From: Planctomycetota bacterium
GTDB taxonomy: Bacteria > Planctomycetota > UBA1135 > UBA2386
NCBI GenBank assembly: GCA_016794485.1
Contig: JAEUHV010000096.1
Coordinates: 1 to 55,420 of the forward strand
DNA: 55,420 nt
Direction: 5' to 3'
Shown: in pieces, positions 3,409 to 30,995 of the stretch
How positions within the stretch are numbered: position 1 is the stretch's first letter
Layout of the letters: every line of letters begins with the position of its first letter
Position numbers and translations under genes: made by a program
The notes under the pieces: model-generated
Told to the model about the DNA's origin: nothing
Database searches by the model: none
What the model saw: the letters and a program-made list of their open reading frames with translations, nothing else

Positions 3409-4122
3409 GTGCGATCGATCGCTTTGGCAAACCAGAAGGGCGGCGTCGGCAAGACGACAACGGCGATCCATCTCGCCCATGGCCTTGCCCTGGCAGGCCA
3501 TCGGGTGGTGTTGTTCGACCTGGATCCGCAGGGCAACGCTACCGTTGCCGTGCAGGCGATGGCAGAGAACGCAACCGTGGATCCAGAGCTGTTCGGATTG
3601 TTGCGGCTAGATTGCGGTTTGTGGCTGCTGCCGAGCTCTGGCGCAGCAGCGGCGAATCGTCAGGCGACGATCGACGTCGGTCGACTGCAGGATCTCGTGC
3701 GAGAACTCGAACCAGCCGTCGACTGGCTCGTAGTCGACTGCCCACCACGGATGGACGAGTGGGGTTGGGCCGGGGTACAAGTCGCGGACGAAGTCGTTGT
3801 GCCGGTGCAGGCTGAGTTCTTCGCCATGCACGGTCTGTCCCAGATGCTCGAGTCACTGGCAGCAGCGTCGAGCCAGTTTCCCGGCAAGGCTAGATTGCGC
3901 GGCGTGCTTCCGACCATGGTGAACTACCAGGAGCCCGTTTCGCTCGAGATCTTGGCCGACCTACGGGTCAACCTCGGGAGTCGGTTGCTCCAATCCGTTA
4001 TCGTGCGGGATCCAAGCCTGGTCGAAGCCGCAAGCTTCGGTCGCTCCGTGTTCCAACACAGTCCGTTCTCGAAGAGTGCTCTCTGCTACGCCGAGCTGGT
4101 GAAGGAGATTCAGGATGGTTGA
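3409..4122 (+). CDS. parA: Chromosome partitioning ATPase ParA/Soj
   Basis: The sequence MRSIALANQKGGVGKTTT contains the deviant Walker A motif. LFDLDPQGNAT and VVVDCPP follow. The start is GTG, and the 3' end overlaps parB by 8 nt. Confidence 0.95.
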   Translation: MRSIALANQKGGVGKTTTAIHLAHGLALAGHRVVLFDLDPQGNATVAVQAMAENATVDPELFGLLRLDCGLWLLPSSGAAAANRQATIDVGRLQDLVRELEPAVDWLVVDCPPRMDEWGWAGVQVADEVVVPVQAEFFAMHGLSQMLESLAAASSQFPGKARLRGVLPTMVNYQEPVSLEILADLRVNLGSRLLQSVIVRDPSLVEAASFGRSVFQHSPFSKSALCYAELVKEIQDG

Positions 4123-6894: not shown

Positions 6895-7515
6895 ATGCGC
6901 GCCACCCACCCGACACGGCGGAACGAACTGCTCGAGCGCGCGACGCTCGTGCTCAACCGGTCGTGGCGGCCGGTACACGTCACCACGGTTCGTCGGGCCC
7001 TGTGCATGGTGTTTCGCGAAGCGGCGCGCATCGTCTGCCCCGAGTCGCTGTCCACGTTCACGTTCGAAGAGTGGATCGAACAGCCCGTGCCCGATCCCGC
7101 GCGCGCCATCCGTTCGCCGAGCATCGCCATTGCCGTGCCCGAGGTGGTGCTGCTGGCTCGATACGACAGGATCCCGTGCCACGAAGCGCCGTTCACCCGG
7201 CGCAACCTGTTCCTGCGCGACGACTACACCTGCCAGTACTGTGGCCGCCGCTGCACCACGGACCACCTCAGTGTCGACCATGTCCTGCCACGCTCCCGCG
7301 GCGGCAGCACGTCGTGGGAGAACTGCGTGCTGGCCTGTGTCGGCTGCAATGCCCGCAAAGCCGACCGCACGCTGAAGGAAACCGGACTGCATTTGTTGCG
7401 GCCACCTGTTCGGCCGCGCTGGACGCCGTACTTGAACCTCCGCCCGAGCCAGCAGATGGACTCGTGGGCGCGCTTCGCACCCGAGCAAAAGCGGCGCAGT
7501 GCCAGCAGTTCCTGA
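6895..7515 (+). CDS. HNH endonuclease family protein
   Basis: The HNH/zinc-ribbon signature reads CQYCG...DHVLPRSRGGSTSWENCVLACVGCNARK. The N-terminal LVLNRSWRPV region is typical of stand-alone HNH proteins. Confidence 0.85.
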   Translation: MRATHPTRRNELLERATLVLNRSWRPVHVTTVRRALCMVFREAARIVCPESLSTFTFEEWIEQPVPDPARAIRSPSIAIAVPEVVLLARYDRIPCHEAPFTRRNLFLRDDYTCQYCGRRCTTDHLSVDHVLPRSRGGSTSWENCVLACVGCNARKADRTLKETGLHLLRPPVRPRWTPYLNLRPSQQMDSWARFAPEQKRRSASSS

Positions 7516-12904: not shown

Positions 12905-13552
12905 ATGAACACGATCCCTACCGCCGTCGCCGCCATGGCTTTCTTGTCCTGCGCGCTGGCGCAGGATCCGCCCCCGAAGCCGCCCACGCCGCAAGAGGCG
13001 AAACCGCTGGCTCTCGGCGATGCGCTGCCGAAGGGCCTGTCGTTTCGCACGATCGACGGCAAGGTGCAGTCTCTCGACGACCTGCGCGGCAAGGTCGTGG
13101 TGCTGCACTTCTGGTCGACGAGCTGCCCGTACGAAGTCGCCGCCGAGCCCAAGCTGAACACGCTCAGTGCGCACTTCGCCGACAAGGGCGTGGTCGTGCT
13201 CGGCGTCGCCGCCAACGCCAACGAGATCGGGGCACCGCCCGAGGCGAAGGAGTTCGAGACCAAGGACGCCGACAAGCTGCCCTACGGCAAGCTGCGGGCC
13301 AAGGCCGCGGAGAGCAAGGTCAACCACGCGATCGTGGTCGACCAAGACGCCAAGCTCGGCACCTTGCTCGCAGCCAAGACGACACCGCACTGCTTCGTCT
13401 TCGACAAGGAAGGCAAGCTGCAGTACCAGGGTGCGCTCGACGACGACGGCTCGGGCAAGAACGCGAACCCGACGCGCTACGTACACGACGCAGTGACGTC
13501 CCTGCTGGCGGGGGAGAAGCCCGGAGTGCAGACGACCAAGCCCTACGGTTGA
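12905..13552 (+). CDS. TlpA/ResA-like periplasmic thioredoxin-fold protein with an atypical active site
   Basis: The signal peptide is FLSCALA|Q. VVVLHFWSTSCPYEVAAEP aligns with the TlpA motif FWATWCxPCxxExP, but the second Cys is replaced by Glu. Confidence 0.8.
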   Translation: MNTIPTAVAAMAFLSCALAQDPPPKPPTPQEAKPLALGDALPKGLSFRTIDGKVQSLDDLRGKVVVLHFWSTSCPYEVAAEPKLNTLSAHFADKGVVVLGVAANANEIGAPPEAKEFETKDADKLPYGKLRAKAAESKVNHAIVVDQDAKLGTLLAAKTTPHCFVFDKEGKLQYQGALDDDGSGKNANPTRYVHDAVTSLLAGEKPGVQTTKPYG

Positions 13553-13597
13553 CGCACGAAGTTCGCGCCCGGTCAGGGCGCCCGCAGGAAGTGATGC

Positions 13598-22914: not shown

Positions 22915-22969
22915 AAGTCGCCGCAGGCCGGTGCCGAATCGGGGGAGGCTCGTATCATCCGCGCCCCCG

Positions 22970-25408
22970 ATGCAAGCACGTATGCGCTGGCTCACCTTCG
23001 TCGCCTTCCTGTTCGCCCTGATCTCGCCGCTCGCGGCGCAGGACGGAACACTGACCCTGACCGCTGCGTTCGAGCCCGCCACCGCCAAGCCCGGCGACAA
23101 GGTCGTGCTGGTGCTGTCGTGCGACGTCACCGAAGGCTGGCATGCCTACGGCACGCTCGAGAAGACCAACCTCCCGGTCGGGCTCGCCCCCGAAAACGTC
23201 AAGACCGCCGGGCTCGAGCTCGATGGTGCGGCGCAGGTGCCGCCGGGCATGCGCAAGATGGTCGGCTCGCTGGCGACGTTCCCGCTGCCGAACCAGTTCA
23301 GGGTCAAGCAGCCGATGACGGTGCCGGCCGGCATGGCCGCCGGCGAGATCACCGTCACCGGCGACCTCGACTACAACATCTGCAACGAACACGGCTGCCT
23401 GCCGCCGGACAAGGTCGCGTTCAGCGCAAAGCTCGTCGTCGCCGCCGCGGCCGGTGAACAGCCGCCGATGCCGACGACGACCAAGCCCGGCCTGGAGATC
23501 GCGCCCGGCGACAAGGTCACGATCGCGGCGAAGTTCGATCCGGCGACCGCGCGCGCCGGCGAAATCGCGAAGCTGGTGCTCACGGTCACCGTGCACGACC
23601 ACGAATGGCACGCGTACGGCTCGCTCGAGACGGAGCAGTTGCCGGTGGCGTTGCCGCCCGACAATGTCGACGCAGGTCCGCTCGAACGCGTCGGCGACGC
23701 CGACGTGCCGCCCGGCGAACCGGTGCAGAAGGGTGGCAAGACGACCCATCCGCTGCCGCCCGTGTTCGAGGTGACGCAGGTGTTCCGCGTTCCCAGCGGC
23801 ACGAAGCCCGGCACCATCGACGTGTCCGGCGCGCTCGCCTACCAGATCTGCAATGCGAACGTGTGCGAGTCACCAGCGCAGCTCGACTTCGAGGCCAAGC
23901 TCGCCGTCGAAGCCGGTGAGCCGCGCGCCGATCGCCTCGGCACGGCGGTAGCACCACCGAAGACCGTCGAGAAGAAGCCCGCCGACCCAAAGCAACCGGC
24001 GCAGAATCCGTCGACGAACGGCGCCGAAACCAAGGAGCCGGAGAACCCGTACCTCAACTGGTGGGTGCTCATCGTCGCGTGCATCGGCGGCGCGTTCTTC
24101 GCCCTGGCGATGCCGTGCACCTACCCGATGATCCCGATCACGTTCAGCTTCTTCACGAAGCAGGCGGAGAAGCGCGGCGGCAACGTGATGAGCCTGGCGC
24201 TCACCTACGGCGCTGGCATCGTCGTGATGTTCGTACTGGTCGGTGTGCTGCTGGCGACGGCGATCCAGGACATTGCCAGCCACTGGCTCACGAACGGGGT
24301 CATCGGCGTCGTCTTCCTGCTGTTCTCGTTCTCGCTGTTCGGCTGGATCACGCTGCAACCGCCGCAGTTCGTGCAGAACCTGGCGACCAAGGCGAGCACG
24401 ACCGGTGGCTACCTCGGCGTGTTCTTCATGGGCGCGACGTTGGTGATCACGTCGTTCACGTGCACGGCCCCGATCGTCGGCGCCATCCTGCCCGGCATCG
24501 CCGAACTCGGCTACGCCCGCGTCGCGGTGGGCATGGGCGTGTTCGGTTTCACGATGGCGGCCCCGTTCGTGGCCCTGTCGCTGATGCCGACCAAGGTGAA
24601 GGCGCTGCCGCGCTCCGGCGAATGGATGGAGACCCTGAAGGTCTCGCTCGGCTTCCTCGAACTCGCGGCGACGCTGAAGTTCGTATCGAACGTCGACCTC
24701 GCGCTCGACTGGCAGGCGATGCCGCGCGAGCTGTTCCTGCTGCTGATCGTCGCGATCTTCCTGATGTGGGCCGCGTACCTGTTCGGCATCCTGCGCAAGG
24801 CCGGGACCGCCAACGAAGGCGTCGGCAACGGCCGCATGGCGACCGGCATCACGGTGGTGCTCGCCGCGACCTACCTGCTGTTCGGCGCGATGGGCTACAA
24901 GCTCGACTACTACATGACGGCGTTCGCGCCGCCCTACTCGGCGCCGATGGTGGCGACGCAGTCGCACGCCAGTGGCGCGTCCGAGAAGAACCCGACCACG
25001 CACACGATCGTCAAGGACGACGGCGACCGCGCCCTGGAGGTCGCCAAGGCCGAAGGCAAACTGGTCCTCTACAACTTCACCGGCTTTGTTTGAATCAACT
25101 GCCGCGCGATGGAAGACGACGTCTTCCTGCGTCCGGCGGTCGCCGGAACGATGAAGAAGGACTTCGTGGAGGCTCGCCTGCACGTCGACCTGCAGAAGCA
25201 CCTGACCAAGGAACAGTTCGCCCGCAACAAGGAGCTGCAGAAGCAGTTCACCAAGAGCCGCGCGATGCCGACCTTCGTGGTGGTGGATCCGCAAACCGGC
25301 AAGAAGCTCGGTGAGGCGCAGCCCGAAGGACTGACGCCAGGTACGCAGACCGAGAACTGGGGCAAGTTCCTCGGGCGCATGATCGAAGCCGCCGGCCGCA
25401 AGCCGTGA
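22970..25408 (+). CDS. DsbD-family thiol:disulfide interchange protein, predicted selenoprotein (TGA 25091..25093 decoded as Sec)
   Basis: Track ORFs 22931..25093 and 25109..25408 are in the same frame and are separated only by the TGA. Two N-terminal DsbD-alpha-like domains carry GWHAYG...ICNEHGC and EWHAYG...ICNANVC. The TM core carries the two DsbD cysteines (MPCTYPMIP and FTCTAPIVG). The thioredoxin domain reads GKLVLYNFTGFV-U-INCRAMEDDVFLRPAV...MPTFVVVD. This aligns with E. coli DsbD [29 protein letters not shown]...LPTILFFD. The start could be the GTG at 22931, the ATG at 22970 or the ATG at 22982. Confidence 0.75.
25101..25137 (+). promoter_or_regulatory. Candidate bacterial SECIS stem-loop
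   Basis: The upper stem is a perfect 7 bp, GGAAGAC-GAC-GTCTTCC (25111..25127). The lower stem pairs GCCGCGCG (25101..25108) with CGTCCGGC (25030-style numbering corrected: 25130..25137) across a 2x2 internal loop. The apical loop starts 24 nt after the UGA and contains a G. Confidence 0.5.
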
Positions 25409-28063: not shown

Positions 28064-29026
28064 TCAGTTGATCTGGCGCGGAACGGCGGGCTTGGCCTTC
28101 GGCTTGGCCGGCTTGGTCGCCGCCGCCGGGGCCACCGGGGCAGTCGGCACGCACCCTGGGCAAGCGGGTGCTGGCGCAGTCGCGGGCCCGGTTGCGCAGC
28201 ACGCGCCGGCCGCGGCAGGCGCGTCGACCGGGGCCGGGGCATCTGCCGCCACGGCATTGGCCACTGCCGCCGGAACGGCTGCCGGGGCCAGGGCCGGAGC
28301 GACATCCGGCGCTGGCGCCGGGGCTGGCACCGACGCAGGGGCGACCTTGCCGACGGTCTTGTCGAGCACCGCTCGCCGCGGCGGCGCACACCGGCCGCCG
28401 TCCCCCGATGCACGCTCCAGCGCTGCCTGCACCCGGCTGCGCGAACGCGCCAGGCTGCTGCGCACGGCCTTCGGCGCCTCCTCGTGCAACGCCTGCGTCG
28501 CCGCGTCGAGTTCGGCCTGCGCCTTCTGCAGTTCCTCCGACACCGCCTGCTGCAGCCGCGCCTGGCCCTCCTGCCGTTCGTTCGCCTCGCGCTGCTGCCG
28601 TTCGGCCGCACGCTGCGCCTCGCGCAGGGCCCGTTCCGCATCGCGCTGGGCGCGCTGCATCTGCTGCTCGGCCTCGCGCTGCTGCTGCTGCGCCATGCGC
28701 TGGGCCTCGGCCATCGCCTGCTCCGCCTCGCGCGCCGCCTGCTGGTGGGCGGCCTCCATCTCGCGCCGCATCTGTTCGTGCTCGCGCTGGTGGTTCTCGT
28801 GGATCGCCGCCATCTCGCGCTCGTGCGCCGACTGCGCCTTCGTGAACGCCTTCTTCAACTGCTGCAGTTCGCGCCTGGCCTGGGCGAGTTCCTGCTCGGC
28901 CGTCTCGATGCGCGCGGTGGCGCGCTCCAGCGTCTCGACGGCGTTCTCGGGGAAGGACTGGGCGGGCACCGACAGTGCAGTGAACACTGCGAACAGGGCG
29001 CCACCGATCAGCGTGCGGGCGGACAT
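28064..29026 (-). CDS. Secreted coiled-coil protein with an Ala/Pro-rich, Cys-containing C-terminus
   Basis: I trimmed the ORF to the ATG at 29026 (MSARTLIGGALFAVFTALSVPA|Q). A long E/Q/R/A heptad-like region is followed by the tail APAPAP...GACCATGPATAPAPACPGC. The gene lies 48 nt upstream of the ECF sigma gene on the same strand. Confidence 0.6.
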   Translation of the reverse strand: MSARTLIGGALFAVFTALSVPAQSFPENAVETLERATARIETAEQELAQARRELQQLKKAFTKAQSAHEREMAAIHENHQREHEQMRREMEAAHQQAAREAEQAMAEAQRMAQQQQREAEQQMQRAQRDAERALREAQRAAERQQREANERQEGQARLQQAVSEELQKAQAELDAATQALHEEAPKAVRSSLARSRSRVQAALERASGDGGRCAPPRRAVLDKTVGKVAPASVPAPAPAPDVAPALAPAAVPAAVANAVAADAPAPVDAPAAAGACCATGPATAPAPACPGCVPTAPVAPAAATKPAKPKAKPAVPRQIN

Positions 29027-29186
29027 GACTGCCTCCGGGGAGGTGGGAGGAACGGAACCACCGGCGACGTACCGGTGGCGAAGGGCGCGCATTGCACCGT
29101 GCCGCCGACTATTCCGGAACAGGAACGATTCCCCGACGCGGCGCTGCGTTGCCCGGCCCGAAGCCCGGCGTAGAGTGCGGGCCGGC

Positions 29187-30995
29187 ATGCCCCTCCTCGT
29201 CACGGTCGCACTGGTGGTCCTCGTGCACCTGCAGACGGCGATCGGCGCGTGGTTCGGGGTCGGCCTGCTCGCCGACGACCACCAGATGGTCGGCTCGGCG
29301 ATCCTGCGCCACGGCGTGCTGCCCGACGGCCGCGCCCTGCCGGCGGAGATCCACCGCACGTTCGCCAGCATGTTCGCGGTCGACCCGCTGCCGGCCGATG
29401 CCCCGGTGGCGCTGTATCGCCCGTTCCTCGACCTGCTGTTCTGGCTCGAGCAGCCGTTCTTCGGCATCGACGCAACCGGCTACCACATCGCCAATTCGCT
29501 GATGCACTGCCTCACCGCGGTGCTGTGGTTCGTGCTGGTGCGGCGCCTGTCGGGCTCGGCGTGGGCAGGCCTCGCGACCGCGGTGCTGTTCGCCGGCTGG
29601 CCGGGCCACTCCGAGGTCACGCACTGGATCGCCGCGCGCACGAACGTGATGTCGGTGTGCTGGCTGAGCCTCGCGCTGGTGGCCCACGACAACGCCCTGA
29701 TCGCAGCGACGAAACGCGGACGCTGGTGGGGGCTCGCCCTTTCGGCTCTGGCTGCGGTGGTCGCGGTCGGCACCAAGGAGTCGGCGATCTTCGTGTTGCC
29801 GCTGGCCGGAGTGCTGGCCCTGGCACGCCTGGGCCCCATGCGCTCGTTCCCGGCGATGCTGCCGATGACGGCGTTGCTGGCGGCGTGGTTGCTGTGGCGC
29901 GCGCACCTGCTCGGCACCTGGGGCTCGGGCACGATCTACGGCTGGAAGGCCCACCGGATCGGGCTCGCTTCGTGTCTCGACTGGCTGCAGGTCCTGCTCG
30001 CGCCGGCGCACCGCGCCCACGTGCCGCGGCCCCTGGCCTGGCTGCTCGCCGCGCTGCACGGCGGCCTGCTCGCCCTGGTGTTCCCCGCCCTGCGCAGCAA
30101 GTCGCTGCGCACGCCGGCGGCGCTGGGCTTCGTGCTGCTGGCGCTCGGCTACGTCGCCGGCATCGGTCTCGAACGCCTCGATCTCGCGACCCTCGAGAAC
30201 GTGCGCTACAGCTACGAACCGGCCCTCGGCCTGTGCGTGCTGTTCGGGATCGGCCTAGCCGCACTGCCGCGCCGCGTGTACCTGCTCGGGCTGGTCGCAC
30301 TCGCCGTCGTCTACAACTTCGTGCTCGACCACAACCGCCGGCCGTGGCGACGCGTGTCCGCCAACTACGAACGCATGTGCGCCGAGGTCGTCGAGTTCGC
30401 GCGCACGCAGCGCGCGCCGCTGCGCGTGCTCGACGCGCCGGGCGTGCACGACGGTGCGTTCGGCTGGCTCAACGGCGTCACCGAGTTCCTGTTCTTGCAG
30501 TTGTCGGCGCCGGCCGGAACGGACCTGCGCGGCGGCATCGCCAGCACCGTCGAATGGCACGGCGTGATCCACGAACTGGCGGCCGCCGCCGTCCAGAAGC
30601 AGCTGCCGATGCGCACGTTCACCGTGCATGCAGGCGACGGCTCGCTGCAGCCGTTCACCCTCGACCCGCAGTTCCCGGCCCAGGTGTTTGCCGGCACGAC
30701 CATCGCCTACGGCCGCCTCGCCTCGACGCCACCTGCAGTCGGCGGGACCTTGCCCGTGCAAGCGCTCGCGACGACGGACGCGCCGGTGCGCCTGCGCGCC
30801 GAAGCCGCCGTCGGCGACCGGATCGTGCGTTCGCCCATCGCCGAAGCGACCTCGACCCGCCCCGCCGTGCAGCTCGCGGTGCCGATACCCGTCGACTGGT
30901 CGTCGCAGCAGACCATCGTCGTCACCCTCGTGGTCGAACGCGACGGCACAGAACGACGGTTGCCGCTGGGCTCCACGATGGCCGAGCTGCGCTGA
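29187..30995 (+). CDS. GT-C-type (ArnT/PMT-like) polytopic membrane glycosyltransferase
   Basis: I trimmed track ORF 27999..30995 to the ATG at 29187 (MPLLVTVALVVLVHL...). The protein has many TM helices. The loop motif YRPFLDLLFWLE...GYHIANSLMH is typical of dolichyl/undecaprenyl-phosphate-sugar transferases. A soluble C-terminal domain follows. Confidence 0.65.
   Translation: MPLLVTVALVVLVHLQTAIGAWFGVGLLADDHQMVGSAILRHGVLPDGRALPAEIHRTFASMFAVDPLPADAPVALYRPFLDLLFWLEQPFFGIDATGYHIANSLMHCLTAVLWFVLVRRLSGSAWAGLATAVLFAGWPGHSEVTHWIAARTNVMSVCWLSLALVAHDNALIAATKRGRWWGLALSALAAVVAVGTKESAIFVLPLAGVLALARLGPMRSFPAMLPMTALLAAWLLWRAHLLGTWGSGTIYGWKAHRIGLASCLDWLQVLLAPAHRAHVPRPLAWLLAALHGGLLALVFPALRSKSLRTPAALGFVLLALGYVAGIGLERLDLATLENVRYSYEPALGLCVLFGIGLAALPRRVYLLGLVALAVVYNFVLDHNRRPWRRVSANYERMCAEVVEFARTQRAPLRVLDAPGVHDGAFGWLNGVTEFLFLQLSAPAGTDLRGGIASTVEWHGVIHELAAAAVQKQLPMRTFTVHAGDGSLQPFTLDPQFPAQVFAGTTIAYGRLASTPPAVGGTLPVQALATTDAPVRLRAEAAVGDRIVRSPIAEATSTRPAVQLAVPIPVDWSSQQTIVVTLVVERDGTERRLPLGSTMAELR

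Follow-up and report, generated by a model that had tools for sequence, protein, structure and literature searches.

Does an in-frame TGA end a gene, or is it read as an amino acid? The question is raised by a DsbD-family reductase gene on contig JAEUHV010000096.1 of a Planctomycetota bacterium (assembly GCA_016794485.1). The window analysed here is the entire 55-kb contig (55,420 nucleotides). Two of its open reading frames (ORFs), 22931..25093 and 25109..25408, share a common frame, with TGA 25091-25093 as their sole separator; the likely start of the first is ATG 22970, after which a signal peptide follows. When the TGA is read through, the protein carries GKLVLYNFTGFV before the site and INCRAMEDDVFLRPAV...AMPTFVVVDP... 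after it, INCRAMEDDVF being what directly follows the TGA. An earlier reading of the sequence (hereafter the original prediction) had proposed that the two pieces form one selenoprotein rather than a truncated DsbD and an orphan ORF, and its coordinates and read-through translation were both reproduced. We conclude from comparison with related sequences that the locus very probably encodes a single membrane reductase of the DsbD superfamily, about 812 amino acids long, in which UGA 25091-25093 would be decoded as selenocysteine (Sec, or U, in the motif U-I-N-C). Judged by its conservation, the apparent stop is almost certainly a Sec codon shared by a group of uncultured Planctomycetota. The one-protein proposal is upheld by the constancy of the TGA, by a Cys/Sec pair at its column, by conserved codons ahead of the first downstream ATG and by a conserved RNA structure.

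Conservation of the TGA codon and its surroundings

The comparison covered 57 DsbD loci, which collapse to 40 distinct sequences. Apart from the window, 23 of them come from species-representative genomes of Planctomycetota, 26 from metagenome contigs and 7 from a second subgroup (FTGFT). All 57 have TGA at this codon, and TAA or TAG was found in none. About 100 in-frame codons 3' of the TGA are open and conserved across the loci, and the tblastn matches to the 23 genomes extend over residues 1-810, across the TGA. At the protein level, 107 of the best 120 protein clusters stop exactly one residue before the TGA, at ...N[FLI]TGF[NTVI], and the other 13 are full-length, with the sequence ...TGFT-C-xNC-RMVERG....

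The codon is TGC in these 13 full-length relatives, which are monophyletic, and TGT or TGC in distant relatives. Two Cys-form loci were read, L081 and L082. The second, which has full flanks, has the gene order histidine kinase, response regulator, HEAT, DsbD, HtrA in common with the window; for L081, only the DsbD-redoxins-HtrA part of the synteny is common. We read the Cys clade as orthologous to the Sec forms, not paralogous. Alignment with Cys-containing orthologues, a check suggested along with the original prediction, gave a Cys/Sec pair at this column within a syntenic, monophyletic TGC clade.

The closest solved relative of the C-terminal (gamma) domain is 3F9U of Bacteroides (PDB, E=2.3e-9). 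In the alignment, its FTGYG-C-VNC-RKME lies opposite FTGFV-U-INC-RAME, CxxC over UxxC, which places the TGA at the first Cys of the CxxC motif, as had been predicted. A weak second segment pairs aqPfyvliD with amPtfvvvD, at the candidate cis-Pro. The Pfam matches to PF13899 (Thioredoxin_7, residues 684-774) and PF13098 (Thioredoxin_2, residues 692-778, 31 bits for a cut-off of 27) together cover residues 684-778, and the TGA is residue 708, so that the thioredoxin domain straddles it. A gamma domain of the DsbD-superfamily kind, with the motif U-I-N-C, is obtained only when the TGA is read through.

The codons that immediately follow the TGA were then considered. Five codons separate the TGA from the first ATG. 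Cys at position +3 and Arg at position +4 belong to this stretch, which is upstream of every potential restart codon, and both are invariant. Among the distinct sequences, Cys+3 is written TGC in 35 and TGT in 4, and Arg+4 uses at least three codons (CGC in 23, CGG in 12, CGA in 3), with AGA in L014. Invariant residues with purely synonymous change indicate that the stretch ahead of the ATG is translated in this frame. On the 5' side, the codon before the UGA (window 25088-25090) ends in U in 34 of the 40 distinct DsbD sequences (AAT, ACT or GTT), and so does the corresponding codon of a redoxin gene described below, in 7 sequences out of 7 (GGT; window 13547-13549). T occupies the third codon position in only 29 of the 813 codons of the window gene (about 3.6%), and the Cys-form orthologues use ACC before the site. 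This suggests selection on the 5' context of a recoded UGA.

RNA structure downstream of the UGA

The sequence 3' of the UGA was compared with the consensus for the bacterial SECIS (Sec insertion sequence), following the model of Zhang and Gladyshev (2005) as summarised in PMC13188914: a loop of 3-9 nucleotides (nt) with a G among its two leading positions, a 4-16 bp stem, a UGA-to-loop distance of 16-37 nt, and a minimum free energy (MFE) of -7.5 kcal/mol or lower. Hairpin 1, the SECIS-like element of the original prediction, agrees with every rule in the window, having a 3-nt GAC loop, 7 bp, a distance of 24 nt and an energy of -7.9 kcal/mol. The 7-bp stem and the spacing were confirmed, and the stem is conserved, being 90% paired in alignment A3, which comprises 32 distinct sequences from the window's subgroup and has window 25082 as its column 1. 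It is part of an extended fold, 25098-25140, whose MFE is -27.3 kcal/mol (z-score -2.66); 1 of 200 shuffled sequences folded equally well. The remainder of the predicted element did not stand as well. The loop varies within the subgroup (GAC, AAG, CAACA, UCG, ACC and others), with a G within its first two positions in 13 of the 32 sequences, and the extended lower stem displays no compensatory change; its pairing is lost through substitutions at columns 53, 54 and 56. An argument from the use of a rare GAA codon for Glu in hairpin 1 was dropped, since GAA makes up 19 of the 42 Glu codons of the gene.

The substitutions at columns 53, 54 and 56 are compensated inside a second hairpin, CCGGC-GGUC-GCCGG (hairpin 2). 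Its loop, at 25138-25141, reads GGUC in 30 of the 32 sequences and AGUU in the other two. Compensatory changes occur in 4 of its 5 pairs, 93% of the cells are paired, and its covariation score was reached by none of 500 shuffles. Some of the compensation takes place through coupled amino acid replacements (Pro to Gln or Glu with Gly to Ser, and Ala to Glu with Ala to Ser). The P-A-V-A codons under hairpin 2 are nearly invariant: the three A-V-A codons are GCG in 36 of 38 sequences, GTC in 37 of 39 and GCC in 37 of 38, while usage over the whole gene is about equal (GCG/GCC 52/42, GTC/GTG 35/32). A hairpin with an NGUY tetraloop was found in 49 of 50 Sec loci, as against none of 18 Cys-form sequences, and hairpin 2 is absent from all 18 of these.

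A different arrangement was observed in the FTGFT subgroup (L137-L143). These loci have a single hairpin, GGAAGG-CGUGA-CCUUCC, whose invariant loop begins 23 nt after the UGA and which, in its predicted structure, is a canonical bacterial SECIS. Hairpin 2 is absent from them, and the equivalent codons vary freely, so a constraint on the protein does not account for how well the window's subgroup conserves hairpin 2. Rfam returned nothing relevant, either with the whole window at gathering thresholds or with 25060-25200 at permissive E-values, and no curated bacterial SECIS family matched.

We consider the presence of a SECIS after UGA 25091-25093 to be well supported by these comparisons; the messenger RNA structure immediately 3' of the UGA would drive the local recoding. 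Which hairpin SelB would bind is a question of mechanism only, and the selenoprotein call is unaffected by the answer. We are inclined, though not strongly, to see hairpin 2 as the predicted SelB-binding element in the window's subgroup, with hairpin 1 as a retained spacer or auxiliary helix. Hairpin 2 agrees with the consensus in loop, stem and energy, and its GGUC loop is presumably that of the E. coli fdhF and Moorella SelB ligands. Its distance of 44 nt from the UGA lies beyond the 16-37 nt range. The layout resembles the canonical bacterial SECIS (Escherichia coli fdhF type) in having a coding-region hairpin just 3' of the UGA with a small loop in which G is followed by U, and differs from it in that the GGUC loop is 44 nt out, with a second conserved hairpin in between.

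Alternatively, the SECIS may be the extended hairpin 1 (25098-25140, GAC loop at 24 nt), hairpin 2 being incidental or having another role. The extended hairpin is the MFE fold in the window (-25.2 kcal/mol, against -18.9 kcal/mol for the two-hairpin fold), it agrees with all the consensus rules there, and the FTGFT subgroup has hairpin 1, with its invariant CGUGA loop, and no hairpin 2. Against this stand the freely variable loop of hairpin 1 in the window's subgroup and the lower stem, whose disruptions are compensated within hairpin 2. Moreover, the GGUC motif of the other SECIS of the lineage, that of the redoxin gene, occurs in hairpin 2. We give this alternative appreciable, but clearly lesser, weight than the preference for hairpin 2. 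A further proposal, which we advance tentatively and would not yet call probable, is that the SelB loop moved to hairpin 2, at 44 nt, leaving hairpin 1, the ancestral element 23-24 nt after the UGA, as a structured spacer; linked to it is the reading that this lineage turned both a DsbD-type reductase and a likely periplasmic redoxin client into selenoproteins.

Alternatives to selenocysteine and the decoding capacity of the organism

If the TGA were a genuine stop, the locus would produce an alpha-alpha-beta protein with half a thioredoxin domain, and a separate protein of about 99 amino acids starting at ATG 25109. Every database entry carries this annotation from the gene callers, TGA closes more ORFs in the window than any other stop codon (28 of the 36 that are well formed), and most loci have an ATG or GTG 6 codons downstream. 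However, the Cys and Arg codons ahead of the ATG are under selection at the protein level, and the supposed restart codon differs between subgroups: one has ATG at +6, the other GTG at +6 or +9. Such a split would also hit the active site of one thioredoxin fold and leave a downstream piece devoid of signal peptide, whereas the TGC orthologues are continuous. Finally, the TGA is never replaced by another stop codon in the 57 loci, and neither a promoter-like site nor a terminator-like site on the + strand was found near it. A true stop is thus very unlikely. Since TGA serves as the principal stop in the rest of the window, the recoding at 25091-25093 is local, as the original prediction had also held.

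A second gene of the window bears on whether the organism decodes Sec. It encodes a secreted protein of the Redoxin/AhpC-TSA fold and is itself a candidate selenoprotein gene, with an in-frame TGA (13550-13552) near the C-terminus; a second TGA at 13592, 13-14 codons past the first, is its real stop. The same TGA arrangement is shared by six related loci (L001 at about 7940, L005 at 6661, L006 at 6775, L007 at 7045, L010 at 6609 and L100 at 4286). The TGA is directly followed by a strong hairpin, with the loop GGUCA in the window; five of the related loci have GGUC instead, and one has CGUGC. Homologues with Cys at the TGA column read KPYG-C-S[IV]K or KE[EQ]G-C-[ST]IK, and these Cys-form redoxins have no downstream hairpin. 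No NCBIfam model scored above its cut-off with the redoxin, and no selenoprotein model matched it. Together, the TGA, the Cys column and the GGUC hairpin provide independent evidence, from within the window, that the organism decodes Sec, and the hairpin points to GGUC as the type of its SECIS loop. When all Planctomycetota loci were scanned for a TGA followed by a GGUC hairpin, only the DsbD and redoxin genes recurred. A match at position 4120 of the window was discarded as an ordinary stop overlapping the start of the next gene, and a molybdopterin oxidoreductase gene in L138 had no in-frame TGA in the portion read.

Another possibility is that the UGA is read through but that no Sec is inserted, a near-cognate Cys or Trp tRNA or a suppressor tRNA decoding it and the hairpins merely stimulating the process. 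Hairpins 3' of stop codons can indeed promote read-through, and the Sec machinery was not found in the window or in related loci (see below). On the other hand, two unrelated genes of the window have the recoded site exactly at a column of catalytic Cys, and the hairpin loop GGUC is of the type that we take to be bound by SelB in E. coli and Moorella. In addition, complete Sec machinery has been documented in some other Planctomycetes (PMC4807772). We give read-through by such a tRNA very little credence.

Several observations nevertheless weigh against our conclusion. None of the approximately 38 window ORFs annotated by Pfam is selA, selB or selD. With ARAGORN, tRNA-Sec was detected neither in the window nor in L001-L023 nor anywhere in the 137 loci, and queries with E. 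coli SelD and SelB had no tblastn match in the 1.83 Mb that these 137 loci comprise. With neither the sel genes nor tRNA-Sec found in the window or related loci, the capacity of the organism to decode Sec is an indirect deduction. To this are added the distance of hairpin 2 and the single-hairpin fold favoured by the window sequence, both reported above, and the fact that the electron pathway and clients proposed below are drawn by analogy only. As for a pseudogene, or a sequencing or assembly error at the TGA, nothing beyond the in-frame stop itself speaks for it, and it is made practically negligible by the recurrence of the TGA in 57 loci that were assembled independently (40 distinct sequences) and in which the frame is unbroken before and after it.

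Protein architecture, neighbourhood and proposed electron route

The positions of the features are collected in Table 1. The layout of the read-through protein is a signal peptide, two alpha domains, a beta domain with eight transmembrane segments and the gamma thioredoxin domain.

Table 1. Features of the window discussed in the text, with their supporting data
Feature	Coordinates	Strand	Supporting data
Predicted DsbD-family selenoprotein gene, full read-through	22970..25408	+	812 residues; translation, Pfam, tblastn
DsbD_N-like (alpha) domain 1	23042..23464	+	Pfam PF11412, residues 31-150, E=3.9e-9
Tandem DsbD_N-like (alpha) domain 2	23525..23959	+	47% identity to alpha domain 1, E=6e-36
Transmembrane beta domain (DsbD_TM)	24062..24904	+	PF02683, residues 365-574, E=4.6e-22
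Gamma thioredoxin-like domain, across the TGA	25019..25303	+	PF13899 (Thioredoxin_7), PF13098 (Thioredoxin_2)
UGA, first position of U-I-N-C, residue 708 (predicted Sec)	25091..25093	+	TGA in 57/57 loci; TGC in Cys clade
Resolving Cys711 codon TGC of UxxC	25100..25102	+	between the TGA and the first downstream ATG
Hairpin 1, GGAAGAC-GAC-GUCUUCC	25111..25127	+	loop begins 24 nt after UGA; -7.9 kcal/mol alone
Hairpin 2, CCGGC-GGUC-GCCGG	25133..25146	+	loop 44 nt after UGA; -8.3 kcal/mol
Candidate cis-Pro, Pro767 in AMPTF	25268..25270	+	in downstream piece only; placed by Thioredoxin_7 match
Secreted Redoxin/AhpC-TSA-fold gene, candidate selenoprotein	12905..13594	+	TGA 13550-13552 at ...TTKPYG-U-RTKF..., near C-terminus
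SECIS-like hairpin of redoxin, GCGCCC-GGUCA-GGGCGC	13565..13581	+	loop begins 18-19 nt after UGA

Alpha domain 1 matches PF11412 with 37 bits, for a cut-off of 25. Each alpha domain has a Cys pair of the form C-x4-C, Cys138 with Cys143 in the first and Cys294 with Cys299 in the second. The tandem arrangement had been described as unusual; the repeat is real, but two or three DsbD_N-like copies are the rule among homologues of the gene. Three tandem copies were observed in about 10 of 120 homologues (P0003, P0020, P0026, P0041, P0055 and others), every alpha domain having its own C-x(n)-C pair, and the number of alpha copies varies across the family. The beta domain scores 78.8 bits with PF02683 (cut-off 27.1) and carries Cys383 in MPCTYP and Cys498 in FTCTAP. 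Seven hydrophobic segments exceed the threshold and one is weaker, about eight in all, which together with the membrane cysteines fits a DsbD-type beta domain. With a DsbD_TM domain that has two cysteines, a DsbD_N domain with a Cys pair and the read-through gamma domain, the predicted protein is a member of the DsbD superfamily.

The organisation and the presumed electron route are those of E. coli DsbD, which likewise has a periplasmic alpha domain with a Cys pair, a beta domain with eight transmembrane segments and two cysteines, and a periplasmic gamma domain with a dithiol. The window gene differs in having Sec, as predicted, for the first Cys of the gamma CxxC, in its two tandem alpha domains with C-x4-C pairs, and in a gamma domain of the Thioredoxin_7 or 3F9U type. 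The residue-for-residue match of the gamma domain to E. coli DsbD that had been claimed proved overstated and holds at the level of motif and profile only: BLASTP of the gamma domain against an E. coli DsbD-gamma sequence gave no alignment, a PDB profile search with the domain did not reach E. coli DsbD, and the NCBIfam DsbD model PRK00293 scored 119.8 bits, below its cut-off of 330. By these sequence measures, the gene is a distant branch of DsbD, nearest to the Bacteroides 3F9U type and outside the E. coli-type DsbD subfamily.

UxxC thioredoxin-fold proteins are the commonest kind of bacterial selenoprotein, and cd02953, which we take to be the DsbD-gamma domain model, is associated with one such family. 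This family, 'Thiol:disulfide interchange protein' or 'Trx-like 2' (PF13098; cd02953; UxxC), has been catalogued since 2004-2008 (PMC2398784, PMC13188914). The predicted window protein is within its definition by motif and domain, with a UxxC in a PF13098 domain (U708-x-x-C711) and a Cys-to-Sec replacement. The family is, however, catalogued by its thioredoxin domain only (exemplar WP_011366075.1), whereas the members of the window clade are full-length membrane DsbD proteins. We found no description of a full-length DsbD selenoprotein in the literature searched, and none of the NCBIfam selenoprotein models recognises the window DsbD. The predicted window protein is thus a hitherto unannotated DsbD within an already known UxxC class, possibly with an unusual SECIS layout. 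The best NCBIfam match was TsoB (NF045694, over residues 335-636), also a selenoprotein with a DsbD-type membrane domain. Identity with TsoB was rejected: the score was 120.8 bits for a cut-off of 805 and covers the membrane domain only, and the window protein has neither a rhodanese domain nor UxxxxU, its single UGA giving one Sec, in the thioredoxin domain, instead of two.

By analogy with established DsbD biochemistry, electrons would pass from cytoplasmic thioredoxin to Cys383 and Cys498 of the beta domain, then to Sec708 and Cys711 of the periplasmic gamma domain, where Sec would be the exposed nucleophile, and from there to the C-x4-C pairs of the alpha domains. The final acceptors would be periplasmic clients, probably TlpA-like or peroxiredoxin-like redoxins. 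Gene neighbourhood is consistent with such clients. In both Cys-form loci, two Redoxin/AhpC-TSA genes lie between DsbD and HtrA (L081, 8320-9544; L082, 8819-10088, - strand), one of them TlpA-like with WCGPC and the other bearing the motif GC[ST]IK at its C-terminal end. The Sec-form loci that were checked, among them the window (25408/25409), have HtrA directly after DsbD and no neighbouring redoxin genes; in this lineage, the second redoxin has its homologue several kb upstream, and this is the redoxin Sec candidate. From these neighbourhoods, the redoxins may be clients of the Sec-DsbD. A comparable system is ScsB-TlpA-PprX of Caulobacter, an envelope peroxide-reduction pathway whose transporter, a DsbD-superfamily protein that has an enlarged N-terminal domain, supplies both a TlpA-like thioredoxin and a peroxiredoxin of the periplasm (PMC3322552). 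The Cys-form orthologues of the window gene, followed by two Redoxin/AhpC-TSA genes, resemble it; the alpha domains of the window protein differ, being DsbD_N-type repeats and not ScsB-alpha.

Two other features of the window were noted. Between approximately 2000 and 7600, the G+C content is lower (62%, versus about 69-72% elsewhere), small ORFs overlap, and an HNH endonuclease gene is found at 6895-7515; this stretch may be a mobile or foreign segment. ORF 28064-29467 (- strand) encodes a long, coiled-coil-like protein rich in Gln, Glu, Ala and Arg, and the AT skew around it is strongly negative (-0.23 over 28-30 kb).

If the SelB loop was indeed relocated, the window's subgroup would have a bipartite bacterial SECIS extending beyond the accepted 16-37 nt range. 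The one-hairpin state of the FTGFT subgroup and the two-hairpin state of the window would then form a natural before-and-after pair, and the contrast between them offers a testable case for the maximum distance of the SelB loop from the UGA. The predicted selenocysteine would belong to an electron conduit in the membrane through which reducing power is exported to the cell envelope, and the presence of the Sec-DsbD together with the secreted redoxin candidate suggests a selenium-dependent redox pathway in the envelope. The 107 truncated clusters are at present recorded as DsbD proteins lacking gamma, with an orphan small ORF called after them in some loci. With the UGA read as Sec, uncultured Planctomycetota of a widespread clade would regain a full alpha-alpha-beta-gamma reductase.

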